Positions 3,259 through 33,980 of a stretch of 64,000 nucleotides of DNA are shown here, one piece after another. A model generated the notes under the pieces. The model was not told the DNA's origin, ran no database searches, and worked only from the letters and a program-made list of their open reading frames with translations. The DNA is from Malacoraja senta (taxonomy: Eukaryota). The stretch covers positions 2,420,001-2,484,000 of the forward strand of contig CM075995.1 in assembly GCA_038087875.1 (NCBI GenBank), written 5' to 3'. The position numbers and the translations under genes were made by a program. Positions within the stretch are counted from its first letter, which is position 1; each line of letters starts with the position of its first letter.

Positions 3259-3530
3259 TATGAAGGGGAAAAGATTTAATAGGAATCTGAGGGGTAACTT
3301 TTTTGCACAAAAGGTGGTGGGTGTATCGAACAAGCTGCCAGAGGAGGTAGTTGAGGCAGGGCCTATCCCAATGTTTAAGAACCAGATAGACAGGCATATG
3401 GATAGGATAGGTATGGAGAGATATGGAACAAACGAGGGCAGGTGAGAACTACTGTTGCGGGGACATGTTGGGCGGTGTGGGCAAGTTGGGCCGAAGGACC
3501 TGTTTCCATCTATATCACTCTATGACTCTA
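3259..3530 (+). mobile_element. CR1 3' end with (ACTCTATG)n tail
   Basis: MKGKRFNRNLRGNFF..KLPEEVVEAG frame, ggccgaagg hairpin and microsatellite tail. Confidence 0.85.
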
Positions 3531-5443
3531 TAAACTAATAATCTAAACTCTATCATATTCAAATACTAAGAGTAATCGACTGACATATTTCACTCCAGAA
3601 CCGGAGATATTGGAACTTATCTGAAACTAAGTTATTTTTGATTCTTTGATTTAAAACGTTGTCCGTAGTGAATGCATAACATGTCAGCTGAACCCTTACA
3701 TGCGGAGGAATGTATGATTAATGAGTCTAAAGTCACTGCACATATGGTTTCATCTTGAATTGCACACCCTGCTCCACTTTCCACAGCTATGGCGTCTTTT
3801 TTTTATTGACATATTTAAGGTTGGTGTGGGCTGTAGTACATTAATGGGGACTTTTAGTGCAGGTTATAAATAGTTCAGACACTCAGTCTCTGAGGCAGAG
3901 AAAAGGATATGCTCTGAAACAAGTTAGACATAACAAGCATCTTCACTTACAAATGAGTTTGTACAAATCTACAAATCATATATTTGCTGATTCTGCATTT
4001 TGTGAAAATATTGTTGACATACAGAAACGAGCAGACAAAAAAATCATCCCCTCCTGACATTCTAAATCCTTGACACTAACTTCATGTTCATTCCAGGGCC
4101 CAAGATAGTTTCTGTAGATTGGTTTTGATATTTTCTCTGCAATGGATTGTCCTTGCGAACAAATCAATAAAGGATACGCCGTCACCAAAATCAATAAACC
4201 TGTTAATGTAGCCCCTGTACGGGCAGGGTTGTTGAATCTGTTTTTGGATTAGAAAGCTGAGTTTTGTGAAATCATTGAAATGGTAAATGTGCATTTTCCC
4301 CCCGCCTTGTGTAAAATCATTCATTATTAAGGTTTTCATTAGTCGGAAAAAAAATCAATTTTCCGAATTCAATCAGTTTCCGCAGCCACCTGTCCTGTCC
4401 TGTCTGGGTTTGCGATGAAGCTGAAGATTACAATCGGAAACTCGGCTGGCTGCATTGAAATGAGAAGTTGTAGACCTCACAATGTCAACCGTTACAAATT
4501 GATAGCTTTTTACTTACACGGCACATTCAGCTAATCCTTCGGAAGTTAAACACTGCCCAACCCACCCCTGAGTTACAGTGATACTAGTGCGCTATTGAAA
4601 AATGCAGTGGCTATTTCTCCTGACATCTTGGACACCATTTATTTCTCAACCGATGTCATTGAAGGGGGATCATTCCCTCATTTACCTTGGCGCAGTGCAG
4701 ATATTTATATAAATCTTCCGTCGTGTATATAACTGCAAGGGTTCATTTACCAATCGAACGCTTCTCATGGTTTGATCTTGATAACGTTGGCGCACATCAG
4801 ACACAGCGATTTAATTGAGTGCTGCTGCCTTTAATAATGGATCTTATGTTTATAGCTACCAGTTTCTGTCAAATCTGATGTGCTTTCAGCAGCGCGGAGT
4901 AACACACAACACTGCACTGGAAACCTATTTGGGATGTTGCAGCTTGAGGGAATAACAGGACAGTGATGTACGGTGATGGAAGCAGAGAGAAACAATAGCA
5001 GGGAGTGGAGACGCCAGCTCTGTCAGGGAGCTTGAAAGACACAGGCAGACCTAGGCATTAGCCCTGCATTTGGAACAAATGGGTGCATTCCTGAGGCAAG
5101 AAGGTCGATGGGGAGGGTACAGAGGAGAGAAATGTGGCACTAGTGAAAGGAGACAGTGACATTTTTGCGAGTGGCAGGCCCTGAAACATATGAGACATTA
5201 ATGAGCCGGCTGGCTATGGTGAGCTCTCATCTGCAGACATAATGAAAATTTTATGGTGACATTTCAAGTCAACAGCAGAGATTTTTGCATGCTGCAAATT
5301 TGACGCGTACAACTAGGGACTAAAGTGAATTGTTGGTGGGTATGTGCTCAGGTCTGACATTGGCAAAAAGCTCCACTTTTCAGATATCAATTGAGCAAAA
5401 ACAATTATTGTGTTGGCTGGTTGATGAGAGAACTCCATACAAA

Positions 5444-6720: not shown

Positions 6721-7274
6721 AACGACCCATTTTGCACTAATTCTGCATTAAACCCATTTTTTATTCTACCCATATTCCCATCATCTCTCCCCCTATCACT
6801 CACCTACACACTATGTGGGTTGCCCTCCCCACCCACATACCTTTCGGGTAACCCACACCCAAGGTTCTGGCGTCGTGAGGCAGTGGTTCCATTTGCTGCC
6901 TCACTGCGTCACCAATGGCAACTAAACGTTTGAGGATAAATGTGATGCATCAGATAGTTTCCTCCAGTCACTGTTACAGTTACAGTTTAGTTTATTGTCA
7001 CGTGTACCGAGGTACAGTGAAAAGCTTTTGTTGCGTGCTAGCCAGTCAGCGGAAAGACAATACACGATTACAATCGAGCCATTCACAATGTATAGTGTAT
7101 AGTGTTAAAGTAAGAAATGTTGCTAAAGGGATAGAGATTTAAGAGTGTGGAGCGATTGTAATCTGTGATTGTAGATATGCTTCTGTGGCCAGCACGCAAA
7201 TAGTTGCCTGGGTTGGGCACCATCTTGGAAGCAAAACTGACTAAATAGCACAAGGCATTAGTAGTAGTAATTAA

Positions 7275-26339: not shown

Positions 26340-26707
26340 TCTGAAGAAGGGCTCCGATCCGAAACGCCACCCGTACTTTTTCTCCAGAGATGCTGTCTGA
26401 CCCGCTGAGTTTAATTCAGATTGGAGATACAGAGTTACAGTGCCCGAATAAGCTCTTCGGCCCACCAAGTCCGCACCGATCACCGCACATTAACTCTATC
26501 CTACACGCACTAGATACTATTTACATTTATACCAAGCCAATTAACCTACAAATCTGTACGTCTTTGGAGTGTGAAAGTTCTCGGAGAAAACCCACGCAGG
26601 TCACGGGGAGAACGTACAAACTCCGTTGTCAGTTCCGGGTCTCTGACGCTGAAACACAGCAACTCTACCGCTATGACACCATGTCGAGTTTTTACATTTT
26701 TATCTTT
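26340..26707. mobile_element. PLE pLTR fragment with a nested V-SINE and 17-bp TSD
   Basis: TSD cacatcaggttaagatt at 26323-26339 / 26708-26724; CTGAAGA..GAAAC core at about 26341; SINE (minus) at about 26410-26685. Confidence 0.75.
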
Positions 26708-27603
26708 CACATCAGGTTAAGATTGTAAAAACAATATGTAAACTAATTTATCATAAGTTCTAGGAGCAGAATTAAGCCATTTAGCCCATCAAGTGCCATT
26801 CAATCTACCTTTCCATCTCAACTCCATTCTCCGACCTTCTCCCCATAACCCCTGACCCCCTTACTAATCTGTCAAACTCCGCCTTAAAAATTTCTATTGA
26901 CTTGGCCTCCACAGCCATCTCTGGCAATGAATTCCATAGATTCACCACCCTCTGACTGAATAAATTCCTCCTCATCTCCTACCAAAAGGTACGCCTTTTT
27001 ATTCTGAGGCTATGGCCGCTGGTCGTAGACTCTCCCAATATTGGAAACATCCTCCCCACATCCACTCTACCCAGGCCTAGGTAAACAAAAAATATTGAAA
27101 AGGTGCCAATATTAAAGCAAATTTAGAAATTGACAGAAACTACCCCTGCGGTTTCAGTAATATGGGTGGATTTCAGTACAAATAATCAAATGTTTACAGG
27201 GAGAATGTAATGGGTGCTTTATAATCCAAGACATAAATAGGGTGGACAGTGGCATAGATTGGGGAGATGGTCAGAACCTTTTTCCCTGAGTAGAAATATC
27301 AAAGATTAGAGGACATAGCTTTAAGGTGAGAGGGGCACAGTTTAAAGGAGACGTGTGGGGCAAGTTTTCTTTACATAGGGTGGTGGGTGCTAGAACGCAC
27401 TGCCAAGGGTGGTGATGAAGGCAGAGCGTTTTAGATGGACATGCAGTGAATGGAGGGAGTTTGGAATCAAGTACACAGGACAAGATGTTAAGAATTCCCT
27501 TGTGCCAATAGGTGGGGAGCATTTCACGACATTCATTGATTGTTGAGAGTGGTAGACGTTCAACATCGGGGGGGGGGGGTAACCTTCAGGACAGTTGGGC
27601 ACA

Positions 27604-27679
27604 GGACACATCATCAGTAGTGTACCCTTGCATCACTGGGTGTTTCGGCCTTTTAACACTATACACCCTCCACAAGGGC
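27604..27679 (-). ncRNA. Predicted hammerhead ribozyme with non-canonical (pseudoknotted) strand order and a kink-turn, in the Hero 3' UTR
   Basis: CUGAUGA (27611-27617), GAAA (27643-27646), GUA site (27662-27664), perfect 6-bp stems I and III, weak stem II, consensus k-turn. Confidence 0.72.
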
Positions 27680-27736
27680 GGCCCGCTGCAGGATGATCAA
27701 CCCTCAGCGCGTCCCGTGTCAAACCGTCCCAAAGAT

Positions 27737-30700
27737 TCACCCCGACATACTTGGGGCCCAGCATGGGTCTTTCCGCTTGAGCCAAATCCACCGGCTGCTT
27801 CTTTCAGCCGCCTCTGAGAGTGATCTTATGGTCTTCCGCAGAGCCTGACCGTGGATTCCAAGCTCCTTCAGCAGTCTGATGGTAGATGACGCAACAAATC
27901 CTCTGCATCCCACTTCAACTGGATAGACTTTGGTGTTCCAGCCACGCTGCGTTGCCTCTGCTGCAAGCTCTGCGTAGCGCAGCTTCTTACGCTCATAGGC
28001 CTCCTCAACAGAGTTCTCCCATGGAATTGTGAGCTCTATGATGTAAGCAGTCTTCTGTGAAGGGGACCAGAACACCAAGTCTGGCCTGAGGTTGGTGGAA
28101 GCAATTTCAGGTGGAAAAATTAGTTGTCGGCCGATGTCCGCCAGCATCCTCCAGTCAAGGGCCCTGCATAGGTTTCCTTCTTCTGATCTGGTGGAAGGAA
28201 GTTTAGATGTTTTCTGTCCTTCTCGGACAAAGGTTGTTACCCTTGGGGGGGGGGGGGGGGGGAGTTGCTTGCTCTCGGAGGCAAGGAGTTGGTCGCACAC
28301 CGCCTGTTCTCAAGGGCTGATGCCAGGCTTTTTAGTACCTGATTATGCCGCCACGTGTATCTCCCTTGCGTGAGGCTGGTCTTGCAGCCTACCATGATGT
28401 GTTTGAGGGTCGCTGGAGTTGGGCAGATGGCACAGGTAGGATCCTCGCCGTACCACTGATGGAGGTTCTTTGGTGATGGAAGCACGTCATATGTCGCTCT
28501 GATGATGAAGCTGATCTTGCTTGCTTCCATTTCCCATAGTTCTTTCCAGCTGATCTTCCTCCGCTCCACACCTTCCCACTGCATCCATTGCCCCTATTTG
28601 GCAAGAGAGACCGCCTTTGCACTTCTTGCGGCCTCCTCCTGTCGCCGCACCTCTTCGACCACCAACGTCCTCCGCTCTGATGTTGTGGCCTTTCGCCAAG
28701 TTGGTTTACTTGTCGTAAGGCCAAAGCCTCCTCTTCCCTGCTGGACTTGCCCCACTATGTCTTTGTGCCTCAGGGCTGATGAAGCTTGCTGTACTGCATC
28801 AGATGGTGTCCACGTCCGGCCAGTTGCCAGGGGCGGCGCAACAGCACTGATGGTCTTGTCTCTAGAGTCCCTCAGTGTCATCTGGAGTCTTACTTTAGAA
28901 CACTTATATTCCTAGTTAGACGAGTGAGAGGTAGTTCCAGGACCCCTTTGCCATAGAGGCCGATGTTAGTTAGACATCGTGGGACACTGAGCCATTTCTT
29001 CGCGTATGAAGTTATGGTTCGCTCCATCTTCTCCACAGTTGTTATTGGGGCTTCATAAACGGTCAGTGGCCACATTGTCTGAGGAAGGAGTCCAAACTGT
29101 AGGCACCAGAGCTTCAGTTTCCCAGGCAGTAGGGTCTGATTGATGTTCTCCAGGCTGTTGACAATTTCTTGCCTTAGTTGTTGCACCTGCTCTTTGTCCT
29201 TGAGACTTGCGTTGTACCATCTGCCCAGGCTTTTAACTGGATGCTCAGACACTGTTGGTATTGGGTCATCACCGATACAGAACCTTGTTTCTCTAAGCAC
29301 CCCCTTGACTATGGAGATGCTTCGAGATTTACTTGGTTTGATTTTCATTCGGGCCCACTTGATGTTCTCCTGCAGCTTTCCAAGTAGCCGCTTGGTGCAT
29401 GCTGCAGTAGTGGTTAGTGTTGTCATGTCGTCCATGTATGCCCTGATGGGTGGCAGACGGAGCCCAGCCCTGGTTCGTTCACCGCCCACCACCCATTTTG
29501 AGGCCCTGATGAAGACTTCCATGGCCATTGTAAAGGCCAAGGGTGAGACTGTGCAGCCTGCCATGATGCCTACTTCCAAGGGCTGCCATGTTGTACTGAA
29601 GTCAGCTGTTGTGAAGCACAGCTGCAGGTCTTGGTAATATTTCTTGCCCAGTGTGGTGATGAGCTCTGGTACATGGAAAAAGGCAAAAGATTCCCGAAGG
29701 AGTTCATGGGGAACTGAACCAAATGCATTGGCCAGATCGAGGAAGATCACATGTAGGTCTCTCGTCCTTCTTAGCTGCTTGGATCTGGTGCCAGATCATG
29801 CTTGTATGCTCCAAGCAGCCTGAAAATCCTGGAATTCCTGCTTTCTGTACAGATGTATCAATGTACTTGTTTGTTACCAGATAGGTGGACAGCCTTTGTG
29901 ATACAATGCTGAAAAAGATTTTTCCCTCGACGTTGAGGAGACATATTGGCCGGAATTGGCTGATGTCTGACGCATCCTTTTCTTTAGGCATTAGCACGCC
30001 GCCGGCCCTTCGCCACGCCTTAGGTATTGTTTGCTTCTTCCACACCACCCTCATGAGCTTCCATAGAAAGCGTAACACATCCGGTGCGTTCTTATAGAGC
30101 TTGTATGGTACTCCGTTTGGCCCCGGAGCTGATGCTGCTCTTGCTCGCCGGACCGTGTTCTCCACCTCTTTCCATCTCGGAGGGCTGGTGTCCAGGTTGA
30201 ATTCAGGTGGTTGAATAGGCGGGATGTCATGTGGGATGACTAACTGCTCATGCCTTTTCGTGTCTTTGTGGGCCTTTTCCAGGTGTTCCTCCAATTCCTG
30301 TTTTGATGTTTTCAAAGTTCCACTTTTTTCCTTTGCGAAGAGGTCTTTGATGAACTTGAAAGGGTCTTTGTAGAACCGTGTTCTTGTGTGTTCTTTCTTC
30401 TTGCGAAGTTTCCTCAAGTTCTCTGTTTTTCGCAAGGTTGCCAATCGGTTCTTGATGTCCTCTTGGAGTAGCATGAGACCTTCTCTCTCTGCGTCAGTTG
30501 CTTTTTTCCATTGCTTTTTCAACTGTCTCCTCTCTCTGATTAGCCTCTCGATCTCCTGCTGCCTCCTGGACTTGATTGGTGTTGGTAATTTCTTTCCACC
30601 TCTCCCTTTACTCACCCCAAACCGTTCTTCTCCATAGCTGTAGATTGTGTTGCCCATCCTTTCAAGCTTTTCCACTGCTGTGCCCGCTTGTTGCTCCAAG

Positions 30701-31110
30701 ATATGTATAAGGTCACTGTTGACCGTCTCCCACTCTTTCTTTTCAACAGCTTTGGGCCATTTCACTCCAGGTTTGTGCCCTTTGATCTTTCCCTCCAATG
30801 GAGGTCTTTGTAGTTGTTGCGTGGGATCCTCCACCGGCATTTCTGTGCTTGTATCACCCTCTTTAGTGACATGGGTGCTGATGCTCTGCGAACTTTGGTT
30901 TGTGTCCCGTCGCTGTGCTTCACTCGACTGATTTGACTGGTTGCTTCGTAAGAAGTACTGGTCAATGCGAGGCCCATGTTTCTGCTCTCTCAAGCACTTT
31001 TTCTTCCCTTGGTGGATCTTCAAGCCCTTCACTGATGTTATTTTCTCCCAACCACAGATGCACACCTGAAGTTTGTGTCCCGCAGCTGTTGTGAATGTCT
31101 CATGTGCCAT
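27737..31110 (-). pseudogene. Hero-type RT-RLE polyprotein, broken by 3 frameshifts and 1 in-frame TAG
   Basis: N-terminal CxC..H..C finger (CICGWEKITSVKGLKIHQGKKKC); RT motifs APGPNG, FRPICLLN, FLDLANAFGSVPH, GIMAGCTVSP, AYMDD; CCHC CAICPTPATLKHIMVGC; RHNQV; RLE RPDLV..IIELTIPWE..RKKLRY. Breaks at about 29760, about 28910, TAG at 28594-28596, and the homopolymer at about 28245-28263. Confidence 0.9.
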
Positions 31111-31296
31111 GCTCTCCTTGTCAGTAGTCGTTTCCGTTCCTGGGTCTGTAACCGTGTTATCAATCGGTGAGCCATCTTGCGCCCCCCGCTCTCGCAGGCT
31201 CTAGGGGTATTCTCTTTAATTTACTTTTAGTAGCATTTAGCGGGTGTCTCCAACTAGCTGAAACAGCGTTGGGGACTGCTGTCATGGGTAGCTAGC

Positions 31297-31742
31297 TTAT
31301 TATCACGTGTACCAGTGAAAAGCTTTTGTTGCCTGCTGACCAGTGAGCGGAAAGACAATACATGATTATAATCGAGCCATCCACGGTGTACATGATAAAG
31401 GGAACATCGTGAATAATGTTTCTAGTGCAAGAGAAAGCCAGTAAAATCCGATCAAGGATAATCCGAGGGTCTCCAATGACATAGATAGTAGTTCAGCACT
31501 GCTCTCTGGTTGTGGTAGGATGATTCAGTTGCCTCATAACAGCTGGGACGAAACTGTCCCTGAATCTGGAGGTGTGTGTTTTCACACTTCTATATCTCTT
31601 GCCTGATGGAAGAGGGGAGAAGAGGGAGTGGCCAGGGTGCGACTTGTCCTTGATCATGCTGCTGGCCTTGCCGAGGCAGCGTGAGGTATAAATGGAGTCA
31701 ATGGAAGGGACGTTGGTTTGTGTGATGGTCTGGGCTGCGTCA
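31297..31742 (-). mobile_element. Rex1/Babar 3' fragment
   Basis: SIYTSRCLGKASSMIKDKSHPGHSLFSPLPSGKRYRS..RFRDSFVPAVMRQLN plus 3' UTR. Confidence 0.85.
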
Positions 31743-31972
31743 CGTGCAGGAAAGGAGAGTAGACTAACCTGGCATAATGTTTGGCACAGACATTGTGGGC
31801 CGAAGGGCCTGTTCCTGTGCAGTACTGTTCTGCATTCAAGGCAGAAATGCACGAAGAATTAATGCGATTTTAAAGTCATATTCCATATTCTCACACTTCC
31901 TAGAGAACTTTGCAGCTAAAGTATTTTTGAAAATCGCAAAACTATAGATGCTGGAAATCTAATATAAAAATA

Positions 31973-32295
31973 AAAAAAGATAGACACAATATGCTGGAGT
32001 CTGGAGAGAAGGAATGGGTGACGTTTCGGGTCGAGAAGGGTCTCGAGGCCTATAGATGCTGGAAATCTAATATAAAAATAGATACAGAAAGAAGATAGAC
32101 ATAAATAGCTGGAGTAACTCAGCGGGACAAGCAGCATCTCTGGAGAGAAGGAATGGGTGACATTTCGGCTCGTGAAGGGTCTGGAGAAATGTCACCCATT
32201 CCTTCTCTCCAGAGATGCTGCCTGTCCCGTTGAGTTACTCCAACTTTTTGTGTCTATATTCGGTTTAAACCAGCATCTGCAGTTCCTTCTTACAC
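31973..32295. mobile_element. Two PLE mini-inserts within an older PLE remnant
   Basis: 31-bp direct repeat at 31942-31972 / 32050-32080 around the first insert; the second (about 32090-32295) is palindromic. Confidence 0.7.
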
Positions 32296-32383
32296 ATACA
32301 AATAAAAAATGCTGACAAAACACCCTTTTTCTTTCCACAGATGCTGCTTCCACTGATTGCTTCCAGCATTTTCTGATTTAATT

Positions 32384-32475
32384 GAAGCATTTTTTTAAAT
32401 GTGGTCATTTTTTAAACATGGGACACAGAGCAACCAATCTGTACACAGTCAGGTCCCACAAACAGGAGTGATCTT
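32384..32475 (-). mobile_element. Ancient DeuSINE (SacSINE1/AmnSINE1-like) 3' remnant
   Basis: gcaaccaatctgtacacagtcaggtcccacaaacag resembles the reverse complement of the Deu-domain end (recalled, not aligned). Confidence 0.45.
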
Positions 32476-32609
32476 GTTCTCTAGGGCAAGACGCTGGATT
32501 GGGAATTTAATTCACATCGTCTGCCTAGAGGCAAGAGAATCACCATACAGACTGATTAATAAGTAGCTGACAAATAGAATTATGATTGATTCAAAAACAA
32601 AATTCTAAG

Positions 32610-33980
32610 ATTGTCTTATCTGATTGAGTTTTTTGAAGATCTAACCAAAAAAGTTGTTGAGGGTAGAGCTGTAGATGTTGTATATATGGACTTCAGCAAA
32701 GCATTCGACCAGGTTTCACATGGTAGGCTGTCCTGGAAGGTCAGATTGCATGGGATCTGTGGAGAGATAGCTGAATGGATAGAAAATTGGTTTCATGGAA
32801 GGAAGCAAAGGGTGATGGTGGAAGGTTGCTACTTGGACTGGAGCCATGTGACTAGTGGTGTGCCTCAGGGTTCGGTGCTGAGCCTGTTACTGTTTGACAT
32901 CGATATCAATGATTTGGATGAGAACGTACATGGTAAGATTAGCAAGTTTGCAGATGATACAAAAGTGGATAGTATTTCAGCTTAATCACGCCAATCAAGT
33001 TGGCATACTCGGCTAGTCCCCTTTGCCAAAATTTGGTCCATAGCCCTTTAAACACTTCCTATCCGTATATCTGTCCAAATGTCCGTTGAAGATGATATAA
33101 AAGTGGGTGGTATTTCAGAAAGTGAAGATGGTTGTGAAAAATTGCAGCAGGGTCTTGATCGGTTGGTCAGGTGCGCCAGAGAATGGTTGGTAGAATTTAA
33201 TGCAGAGAACTATTATACAGTGAGGTGTTGCTTTTTGGGAAGTCCAACATGGGCAAGACTATGTCGAGTGTTGTAGAGCAGAGGGATCTATGAGTGCAGG
33301 TGCATGATCCCTTGAAGGTGGAATCGCAGGTAGATCGGGTGATCAAAAAGCCTTTTAACACATTGGACTTCATCAGTCAGAGTATTGAGTATAGAAGTTG
33401 GGAGGTTATGTTGCAGTAATATAAGACATTGCTGAGGCCGCATTTAGAGTATTGTGTTCAATTCTGGGCGTGATGTTACAGGAAAGATGTTGTCAACTTG
33501 GAAAGGGTACAGAGAAGATTTACAAGGATGTTGCCAGGACTCGAGAGTCTGAACTAGGTTGAGCAGGCTGGGACTCTATTCCTTGGAGCGCAGGAGGATG
33601 ACGGATGATTTTATAGAGATGTATAAAATCATGAGAGGTATACATCGGGTAGACGCACAGAGTCTCTTACCCAGAGTAAGGGAATTGAGAACCAGAGGAC
33701 AAAGATTTAAGATGAAGGAGGAAAGATTTAATAGGAACCTGAGGGTTAACATTTTCACACAAAGGGAGGTGGGTGTATGGAGCTGTCAGAGGAGATAGTT
33801 GAGGCAAGGACTATTGCAATGTTTAAGAAACAATTAGACAGGTACATGGATAGGACATGTTTGGAGGGATATGGGTCAAACGCAGTTAGGTGGGACTTGT
33901 GTAGCTGGGACATGTTGGTCGGCGTGGGCAAGATGGGCCGATGGGCCTGTTTCCACGCTGCATAACTCTATGACTATGAC
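32610..33980 (+). mobile_element. Degenerate CR1 LINE (RT domain to 3' tail)
   Basis: VDVVYMDFSKAFDQVSH, GVPQGSVL, KFADDTK; (ACTCTATG/ACTATG) tail. Confidence 0.9.

Follow-up and report, generated by a model that had tools for sequence, protein, structure and literature searches.

An apparently undescribed permuted hammerhead with a split block, a kink-turn and a four-way junction, predicted in Hero-like non-LTR retrotransposons of animals

A stretch of 64,000 nucleotides from Malacoraja senta (assembly GCA_038087875.1, contig CM075995.1, positions 2,420,001 to 2,484,000; hereafter the window, with positions counted from its first letter) carries on its minus strand a copy of a Hero-like non-LTR (long terminal repeat) retrotransposon. 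The sense transcript of this element contains, with a probability that we put at roughly three in four, a conserved RNA that starts at or just before the stop codon of the open reading frame (ORF), folds as a hammerhead and acts as a ribozyme. Judged from sequence comparison, it would be an apparently undescribed form of permuted hammerhead, split in one of its blocks, braced by a kink-turn and built around a four-way junction, and conserved across a deep clade of animal non-LTR retrotransposons. A preliminary description, made from the letters of the window, had placed a hammerhead core on the sense RNA with its blocks in the order III-UH-I, II-GAAA-III, I-CUGANGA; the comparative data support this core and this order, and assign stem II a different partner strand.

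The minus-strand letters from 27679 to 27604 are identical to those of the preliminary description, and all the elements that it had named in them are present: CUGAUGA (27617-27611), GAAA (27646-27643) and the GUA triplet (27664-27662) with the predicted cut at 27662|27661. Two perfect 6-bp helices (GGGUGU/ACACCC and UAGUGU/ACACUA) and an 8-bp helix (GCCCUUGU/GCAAGGGU) stand in register with the core. The distance from the ORF stop (27739-27737), given there as about 60 nt, measures 58 nt. Standard Rfam hammerhead models were said to miss the motif, and no hammerhead family is found up to an E-value of 10 in window positions 26500-33500, as is expected for a permuted strand order.

The motif recurs in related elements. 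A metagenome scan with an alignment of ten proteins yielded 79 loci encoding relatives (numbered, like the genomic copies below, with the prefix L), with 36-82% protein identity. CUGANGA with a variable middle base lies within about 450 nt past the stop codon in 54 of 68 usable downstream stretches, where chance would give about 0.11 per stretch, and in the window and 46 loci a register-strict script finds stems III and I flush against the core, with 4 bp or more each. A covariance model (R1), built from 44 distinct sequences and given the extension helix and stem III as its only structure, has 67 matches, spread over 65 of 80 sources (64 metagenome relatives and, with a single match, the window), all of them on the sense strand of the ORF and after the ORF; elsewhere in the 362,609 bases searched on both strands it has none. 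On both strands of the 64-kb window its single match spans 27599-27691 on the minus strand (80.8 bits, E 5.3e-19). Seven of the 15 loci without a match have less than 110 nt, or no sequence, after the ORF. Among viral contigs there are 41 pattern matches, and no relative is found among them.

The conserved letters are those of the hammerhead core. They were counted in an alignment of 64 distinct rows (A4), and since stems I and II are absent from the model structure, the alignment is not biased toward them. On the cleavage-site side, U16.1 is kept in 63/64 rows and G16.2 in 61/64, and position H17 holds U 26 times, C 21 times, A 16 times and G once in the 64. On the GAAA side, C11.1 is found in 55/63, G12 in 60/63, C15.2 in 60/63, and A13, A14 and A15.1 in 63/63 each. 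In the CUGANGA segment C3 is kept in 58/62, U4, G5 and A9 in 62/62 each, A6 in 61/62 and G8 in 59/62, with N7 free (U 34, C 16, A 9, G 3; n=62). The pairs A15.1-U16.1 and C15.2-G16.2 form in 62/63 and 60/63 rows, respectively, and all core letters are intact together in 50 of the 61 full-length rows. The RNAs thus display several defining features of a hammerhead, namely CUGANGA with a free N7, GAAA with an A15.1-U16.1 pair followed by a non-G H17, and stems I, II and III that abut the core and covary.

The covariation expected by the preliminary description is found in stems I and III and in the extension helix, and its kink-turn is conserved. With the pseudoknotted structure imposed on A4, 92.5% of 1391 cells are paired, against 38-44% when strands are slid by 1-3 columns and 65.0% in shuffled alignments (0/500 reach the observed value, which is not a probability, the relatives being metagenome contigs with shared ancestry); the covariation score is 0.601 versus 0.167. 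Because of this shared ancestry, the argument rests on the slid controls and on the many pair types seen at single positions. Stem I is paired in 96.0% of cells, with changes on both sides in 6/6 pairs; stem III in 96.4%, with compensatory changes in 5/6 pairs; the extension helix in 87.8%, with compensatory changes in 6/7 pairs; and stem II, formed with an upstream strand described below, in 91.2%, with compensatory changes in 4/5 pairs. A plain MAFFT alignment (A3) gives the same picture at 90.0% paired. G.U pairs are frequent (e.g. 22, 13 and 7 at single pairs); on the opposite strand these would be C.A, so the sense RNA is the folded form. From its sequence record, the motif is not a chance resemblance.

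This strand order has a precedent. Eckert, Friedrich, C. Weinberg and Z. Weinberg (2023) divide hammerheads into blocks S, G and C and describe a natural type SGC (HRIMA-1) that is active in vitro (PMC10085705). The pseudoknotted X,Z,Y order of the preliminary description stands, and its claim that such an order was undescribed does not, as it equals the non-circular permutation of type SGC.

From 5' to 3', the RNA would run through the 5' strand of a closing helix (P0), a hairpin (PA), the 5' strand of stem II beginning with G10.1, the 5' strand of the extension helix, the kink-turn, the 16.x strand of stem III, U16.1, H17, the 5' strand of stem I and an A-rich linker. It would then return through the 3' strand of stem II, G12, A13 and A14, the 15.x strand of stem III, the kink-turn bulge, the 3' strand of the extension helix, the 3' strand of stem I, CUGANGA and the 3' strand of P0. 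In the window these parts are placed as follows, with what supports each given last.

27737-27739, minus strand: ORF stop codon UGA (sequence and ORF reading).
27708-27718, minus strand: 5' strand of the closing helix P0, CACGGGACGCG (11 bp with 27610-27600, from the base after A9).
27684-27710, minus strand: hairpin PA with the apical loop UGAUCA at 27698-27693 (folding and relatives).
27680-27683, minus strand: 5' strand of stem II, GGCC, in which G27683 is G10.1 (pairs with 27650-27647).
27672-27679, minus strand: 5' strand of the extension helix, GCCCUUGU, bridging the distal ends of stems II and I (87.8% paired).
27669-27671, minus strand: non-bulged strand of the kink-turn, G (3n), G2n and A1n (conservation).
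27663-27668, minus strand: 16.x strand of stem III, GGGUGU, in which U27663 is U16.1 (96.4% paired).
27662, minus strand: H17 (A), with predicted cleavage on its 3' side, 27662|27661, by analogy (conservation of H17).
27656-27661, minus strand: 5' strand of stem I, UAGUGU (96.0% paired).
27651-27655, minus strand: A-rich linker UAAAA from stem I to stem II (linkers of relatives).
27647-27650, minus strand: 3' strand of stem II, GGCC, in which C27647 is C11.1 (covariation).
27644-27646, minus strand: G12, A13 and A14 (conservation).
27638-27643, minus strand: 15.x strand of stem III, ACACCC, in which A27643 is A15.1 (covariation).
27632-27637, minus strand: bulged strand of the kink-turn, AGU bulge, G1b, A2b and U (3b) (conservation).
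27624-27631, minus strand: 3' strand of the extension helix, GCAAGGGU, with no linker before stem I (covariation).
27618-27623, minus strand: 3' strand of stem I, ACACUA (covariation).
27611-27617, minus strand: C3, U4, G5, A6, U7, G8 and A9 (conservation).
27600-27610, minus strand: 3' strand of P0, UGUGUCCUGUG, the stretch that the preliminary description had taken for a stem II strand (P0 pairing).

The partner of the stem II strand next to GAAA is the GGCC at 27683-27680, located directly 5' of the extension helix, and the corresponding strands of the relatives are 91-96% paired (e.g. GCUCC/GGAGC and GACUC/GAGUC). Position 10.1 is G in 60/64 rows, and the pair 10.1-11.1, counted in 63 rows, is 52 times GC and 7 times GU; the first pair made by the upstream strand is the conserved G10.1-C11.1 pair of hammerheads. 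The bases that follow A9 belong to P0, which begins precisely with the base next to A9, measures 10 bp in the median and reaches at least 6 bp in 37/44 sequences, compared to 11/44 and 14/44 when its 3' strand is shifted by 15 or 25 nt. Between the 5' strand of P0 and G10.1 lies PA, mostly 22-27 nt long. With A9 and the foot of PA as the sole anchors of the P0 register, 55 relatives have 79.3% of positions paired, against 40-50% when shifted, and all eight P0 pairs occur as several pair types. These P0 counts come from an anchor-based script; two MAFFT alignments, A2 (164 nt) and A5 (35 of 36 candidates over the full domain, L041 being left out because its P0 was mis-picked), misregistered the 5' strands of P0 and no counts were taken from them.

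A P0 of at least 6 bp together with a PA of at least 4 bp is present in 35 of 58 sequences, and 31 of these have no unpaired base at the joints. With stem II and the core, such joints make a perfect four-way junction between A9 and G10.1, so that the direct connection of these two nucleotides found in a three-way junction is interrupted here by P0, PA and the ends of the RNA. Stem II probably stacks on the core, since G10.1-C11.1 is conserved while the first pair of P0 varies, and P0 would then stack on PA. In such a Holliday-type junction the G10.1-C11.1 pair would lie under the A9.G12 pair while the backbone crosses over, and only the A9-G10.1 backbone would be replaced by crossing strands.

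The apex of PA tends to be palindromic. In 63 sequences its 6-nt palindromes are UGAUCA (14), UGGCCA (8), GACGUC (6), UGUACA (1) and UCAUGA (1), nearly all centred 11-13 nt before G10.1; the letters change and the self-complementarity stays. Palindromes of this length anywhere in the 28 nt before G10.1 are in modest excess (37/63 versus 35% in shuffled sequences), and the signal is their apical position. The PA loop thus looks like a site of dimerisation by kissing loops. Examples are found at L058 2342-2456, L068 3035-3150 and L088 1377-1492, and at 27698-27693 on the minus strand of the window. At L060, two adjacent head-to-tail units (3454-3543 and 7176-7265) have clearly different ribozyme sequences and the same UGGCCA loop, which could reflect a template switch between RNAs or a chimera of assembly.

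On the far side of stem III, the window has the bulge AGU followed by GA opposite GA, with stem III as the canonical stem and a non-canonical stem that begins with U.G. We take this to be a kink-turn of the Kt-7 or box C/D type. G2n is kept in 51/64 rows, A1n in 54/64, G1b in 55/64 and A2b in 56/64, and the full signature (G.A/A.G after a bulge of about 3 nt) is complete in 46/61, in support of the consensus kink-turn that the preliminary description had proposed between stem III and the 8-bp helix. The remaining 15/61 miss at least one of the four letters, and the family of L072, L080 and L086 has a plain 3-nt bulge in its place. The A-rich linker between stems I and II, likewise foreseen, is commonly 4-5 nt in the relatives (UUAAA, AUAA, CUAG and similar). 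The 5' strand of stem II continues straight into the extension helix, and the 3' strand of the latter straight into stem I; together with the linker, these continuities imply that stems I, II and III come together at their far ends in a second junction. The kink-turn would fold the extension helix back and let it reach stems I and II, an earlier idea that fits the wiring.

The host element occupies 27464-31296 on the minus strand of the window, where homology to an intact unit spans 31296 to 27463. About 121 nt are missing from the 5' end of this copy, which has a frameshifted ORF in pieces and no poly(A) tail. The ORF pieces match the RVT_1 domain (E 6e-17), an intact frame of 1179 amino acids is present elsewhere in the genome, and frames of about 1180 amino acids are open at other loci. 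C-terminal to the reverse transcriptase (RT), residues C952, C955, H963, C968, R1064-P-D1066, E1081 and K1097 are invariant in ten relatives and make up a CCHC motif and a PD..ExK endonuclease signature. This matches the single ORF of the Hero clade, in which the RT is followed by a CCHC motif and a PD..(D/E)xK restriction-like endonuclease. The named relatives of the protein belong to teleosts, sturgeon, lamprey and amphioxus, which fits a clade whose Repbase HERO families are listed from Branchiostoma and Tetraodon (PMC7650587). From these sequence features, the element plausibly belongs to the Hero clade of R2-group non-LTR retrotransposons with a restriction-like endonuclease.

A first look at the 1.94-Gb genome gives more than 1000 candidate copies, 97-100% identical and without poly(A). 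Thirty genomic copies that are 97-100% alike show only single-copy substitutions in the motif, so the family itself is uninformative for covariation; a query with an amphioxus relative, aimed at divergent families of the same genome, returned one family only in all 40 scored places. The 3' end matches 27464 exactly in 26 of 29 other copies and lies within 3 nt of it in the other three. Beyond this end (27464/27463), which reads ...GAUUC and in this family ...CCUGUGUACUUGAUUC, a T comes next in 22/25 non-tandem copies among L002-L030, 10 of them with TG, and 3, 2 and 1 copies agree still longer with the start of the next unit; this reflects either a template RNA that continues past its nominal 3' end or microhomology with the target. 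A run of C in the 3' untranslated region (UTR), at 27577-27566 on the minus strand, differs among copies in length and interruptions, and related contigs have a 27-37-nt insertion at this site. Just 3' of P0, the relatives share a second conserved element, a hairpin framed by GCAG ... CUGUAU (e.g. in L058, L062, L068, L071, L076, L083, L088, L094, L097 and L116), which is a candidate 3'-end or RT-recognition signal. Past the 5' end of the element, the window holds a piece of a different reverse transcriptase (32590-32985, plus strand; motif ...YMDFSKAFD...) and a near-perfect hairpin (32113-32238) that matches MIR2118 on both strands (48 and 45 bits, below the gathering score of 85) and is probably a palindromic repeat, not a microRNA gene.

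Copies of the element are arranged in a way that bears on what the ribozyme might do. Of 10 full-length loci (L031-L040), 9 have an entire 3' UTR upstream of their ORF, with its end 132 nt ahead of the ATG. In all six arrays inspected (L120-L125), a 5'-truncated copy is joined precisely head-to-tail to a full copy; the truncated copies start at positions 1023, 1803, 2009, 2496, 3175 and 3275 of the 3958-nt unit. Tandem units are found in the relatives L059, L060 and L043 as well. Ordinary hammerhead transesterification 3' of A27662 would leave a 2',3'-cyclic phosphate and a 5'-OH, and the ribozyme of the upstream truncated copy would process tandem or read-through transcripts by a cut some 341 nt ahead of the next ATG. 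Such a cut resembles that of the upstream R2 ribozymes and the partial-tandem layout of Penelope-like elements, and trimming of tandem or read-through transcripts would be the likeliest, if weakly supported, role. The ribozyme in the RNA's own tail would have to stay uncut, or be re-ligated, for reverse transcription to begin at the true 3' end. The partial upstream copies are presumably regenerated by template switching or rolling-circle copying, because they are longer than a cut RNA permits, their lengths vary and read-through can only shorten them.

Translation and folding of the ribozyme may exclude each other. In L066, L069 and L111 the PA loop contains the stop codon and the 5' strand of P0 is coding, and in the minimum free energy (MFE) fold of the window copy P0 is prolonged outward to the stop codon (27737), so ribosomes should unfold the ribozyme. 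The same fold is a long helix that closes the whole region and takes up the GUCC that the preliminary description had placed in stem II.

Several observations weigh against a folded, cleaving ribozyme. A core substitution is present in 11/61 rows, and eight relatives with at least 275 nt past the stop codon lack a match to R1; the common descent of the contigs also limits what the shuffled control can say. The MFE is not unusual, with z-scores of -0.88 for the UTR and -0.69 for the motif. In the window copy, a 2-nt deletion at 27711/27710 (29/29 other genomic copies have two extra nucleotides after GGGAC) sits at the junction of P0 and PA and makes the two compete for GCG 27710-27708. The backbone is broken in the A9-G10.1 region, which we take to be a metal-binding site. 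The predicted cut (unit position 3750) is not the starting point of any of the six partial copies found upstream, nor of any of the 33 copies that were sampled with their final 112 nt; 29 of the latter run through the ribozyme. In contigs of four sequencing runs, guessed to be of RNA, no joint bears on the cut; contigs do not reveal RNA ends, and this result speaks neither to expression nor to cleavage. The retention of the sequence 3' of the cut, noted as a puzzle in the preliminary description, holds in every copy examined, and cutting the RNA's own tail would therefore destroy the template. Cleavage itself is predicted, given the conservation of the catalytic set and the activity known for type SGC RNAs; Eckert et al. 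found permuted forms of the hammerhead to be slow (PMC10085705).

The other four of the 33 sampled copies stop at about 27669, 27620, 27619 and below 27576. Two of them (L131 and L145) are truncated one base apart, at 27620 and 27619, just 5' of CUGAUGA, which could mark a stop of reverse transcription at a folded RNA or be chance.

The alternative that survives best, and that we consider rather unlikely, is a hammerhead-like fold kept as a non-catalytic scaffold in the 3' UTR, by which the RT recognises the RNA in target-primed reverse transcription, with cleavage suppressed or absent. Many nucleotides of the hammerhead core are structural as well, and both the interrupted A9-G10.1 backbone and the copies that keep the sequence 3' of the cut and never start there would fit such a role. 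So would the location, as R2 proteins bind a pseudoknotted 3' UTR and RT-binding structures are expected in the 3' UTR of an R2-group element (PMC12222951). Against it, the conserved letters are exactly the catalytic set, with H17 a G only once in 64 rows and N7 free, and the motif lies at least 140 nt away from the 3' end. Furthermore, hammerheads permuted into this block order are cut in vitro where predicted (PMC10085705), and a fold so close to a hammerhead would cleave unless actively prevented.

The exact model of the preliminary description, a plain type SGC hammerhead in which GGCC 27650-27647 pairs with UGUGUCC 27610-27604 and an extra U follows A9, is very improbable. A partial G-C/C-G match can be drawn for it in the window copy alone; in 44 sequences this stem II is 52.8% paired against 36-54% when slid, and it is contradicted by the pairing and compensatory changes of the upstream strand and by P0, which takes up the bases after A9. 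Next to negligible are two further readings, a resemblance by chance and a kink-turn RNA of the C/D-box kind whose C box would be CUGAUGA. In their favour, the C/D snoRNA (small nucleolar RNA) family sR52, the only Rfam family to overlap the motif, matches 27612-27673 weakly (17.7 bits, E 3.6, far under its gathering score of 50); they are contradicted by the R1 match (E 5e-19), by the conservation of the core, by four helices that covary in hammerhead register and by the variable middle base of CUGANGA (U 34, C 16, A 9, G 3), which a C box does not tolerate.

Within the ribozyme reading, an unlikely extension is that unit-length RNA is cut from head-to-tail arrays at two successive copies and its ends are joined into a circular RNA encoding the whole protein. 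Reverse transcription from the fixed 3' site would then go more than once round the circle or, alternatively, switch to a second RNA held by kissing palindromic PA loops. Either route would explain why a truncated copy precedes every full-length copy and why the regenerated partial copies vary in length. If true, this would provide an autonomous LINE-like (long interspersed nuclear element) retrotransposon with a retrozyme-like circular intermediate.

A ribozyme of this kind would matter in several respects. It would place a hammerhead in an autonomous LINE-like element, where the passages of a 2020 review assign HDV-like (hepatitis delta virus-like) and twister ribozymes to the LINE type (PMC7761336). 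Given the number of first-look candidates in this single genome, non-circularly permuted hammerheads would be common in animal genomes and would extend beyond environmental circular RNAs. The three hammerhead blocks could be interrupted, and descriptor searches that assume otherwise will miss the class. Finally, a cutter inside an RNA that must be intact to be copied, placed beside a palindromic loop in partial-tandem elements, opens the processing, dimerisation or circularisation of Hero RNA to direct testing.

Among retroelements, R2 and further LINEs are listed with HDV-like ribozymes and RTE with twister, while Penelope-like elements, Terminons and retrozymes carry type I hammerheads (PMC7761336). 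The HDV-like and twister ribozymes of LINEs are likewise self-cleaving motifs inside non-LTR RNA, which release the RNA of the element from co-transcripts and may help its translation (PMC7761336, PMC13725137). They belong to other ribozyme classes and lie at the 5' end of the unit, whereas the Hero-like motif is in the 3' UTR and is upstream only in head-to-tail arrays. The type I hammerheads of Penelope-like elements and animal retrozymes are also borne by retroelements in tandem or partial tandem, with a ribozyme upstream of each functional unit, and their role in the life cycle is still unclear (PMC4209133, PMC7761336). Unlike the Hero-like motif, these are minimal canonical three-way junctions, many of which act as dimers, and they have no permuted order, kink-turn or four-way junction. 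In addition, Penelope-like elements are a different class, with a GIY-YIG endonuclease and a telomerase-like RT. A literature search outside most subscription journals returned no report of a hammerhead in Hero or in any LINE, nor of a kink-turn in any natural hammerhead. In the main text and one supplement of Eckert et al., searched by terms, there is no retrotransposon or eukaryotic instance beyond entries of the reference list, and no kink-turn.

The closest known system is type SGC. Both share the core letters, the order in which the cleavage-site block is followed by the GAAA block and CUGANGA, the double pseudoknot, a short linker between stems I and II, and a helix that ties the other sides of these stems, here the extension helix. 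Type SGC RNAs were found on metatranscriptome contigs together with hairpin ribozymes and are thought to be circular and virus-like, whereas the Hero-like motif resides in the 3' UTR of an animal retrotransposon. Eckert et al. assume that the blocks cannot be interrupted (PMC10085705), and block C is contiguous in type SGC. The Hero-like motif departs from this, as its stem II strand is upstream and the RNA ends, P0 and PA lie between A9 and G10.1. What appears to be undescribed is thus a block C split by the RNA ends, a kink-turn that leads from stem III to the bridging helix, the four-way junction and the LINE-like setting. Eckert et al. also leave unexplained that the bridging helix is sometimes joined directly to stem III's distal end, which is far away in the crystal structure (PMC10085705). 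In the Hero-like motif both strands of the bridging helix join stem III via the kink-turn, which fits this geometric problem, and a kink-turn within a cage of two junctions suggests how stem III could be tied to stems I and II.

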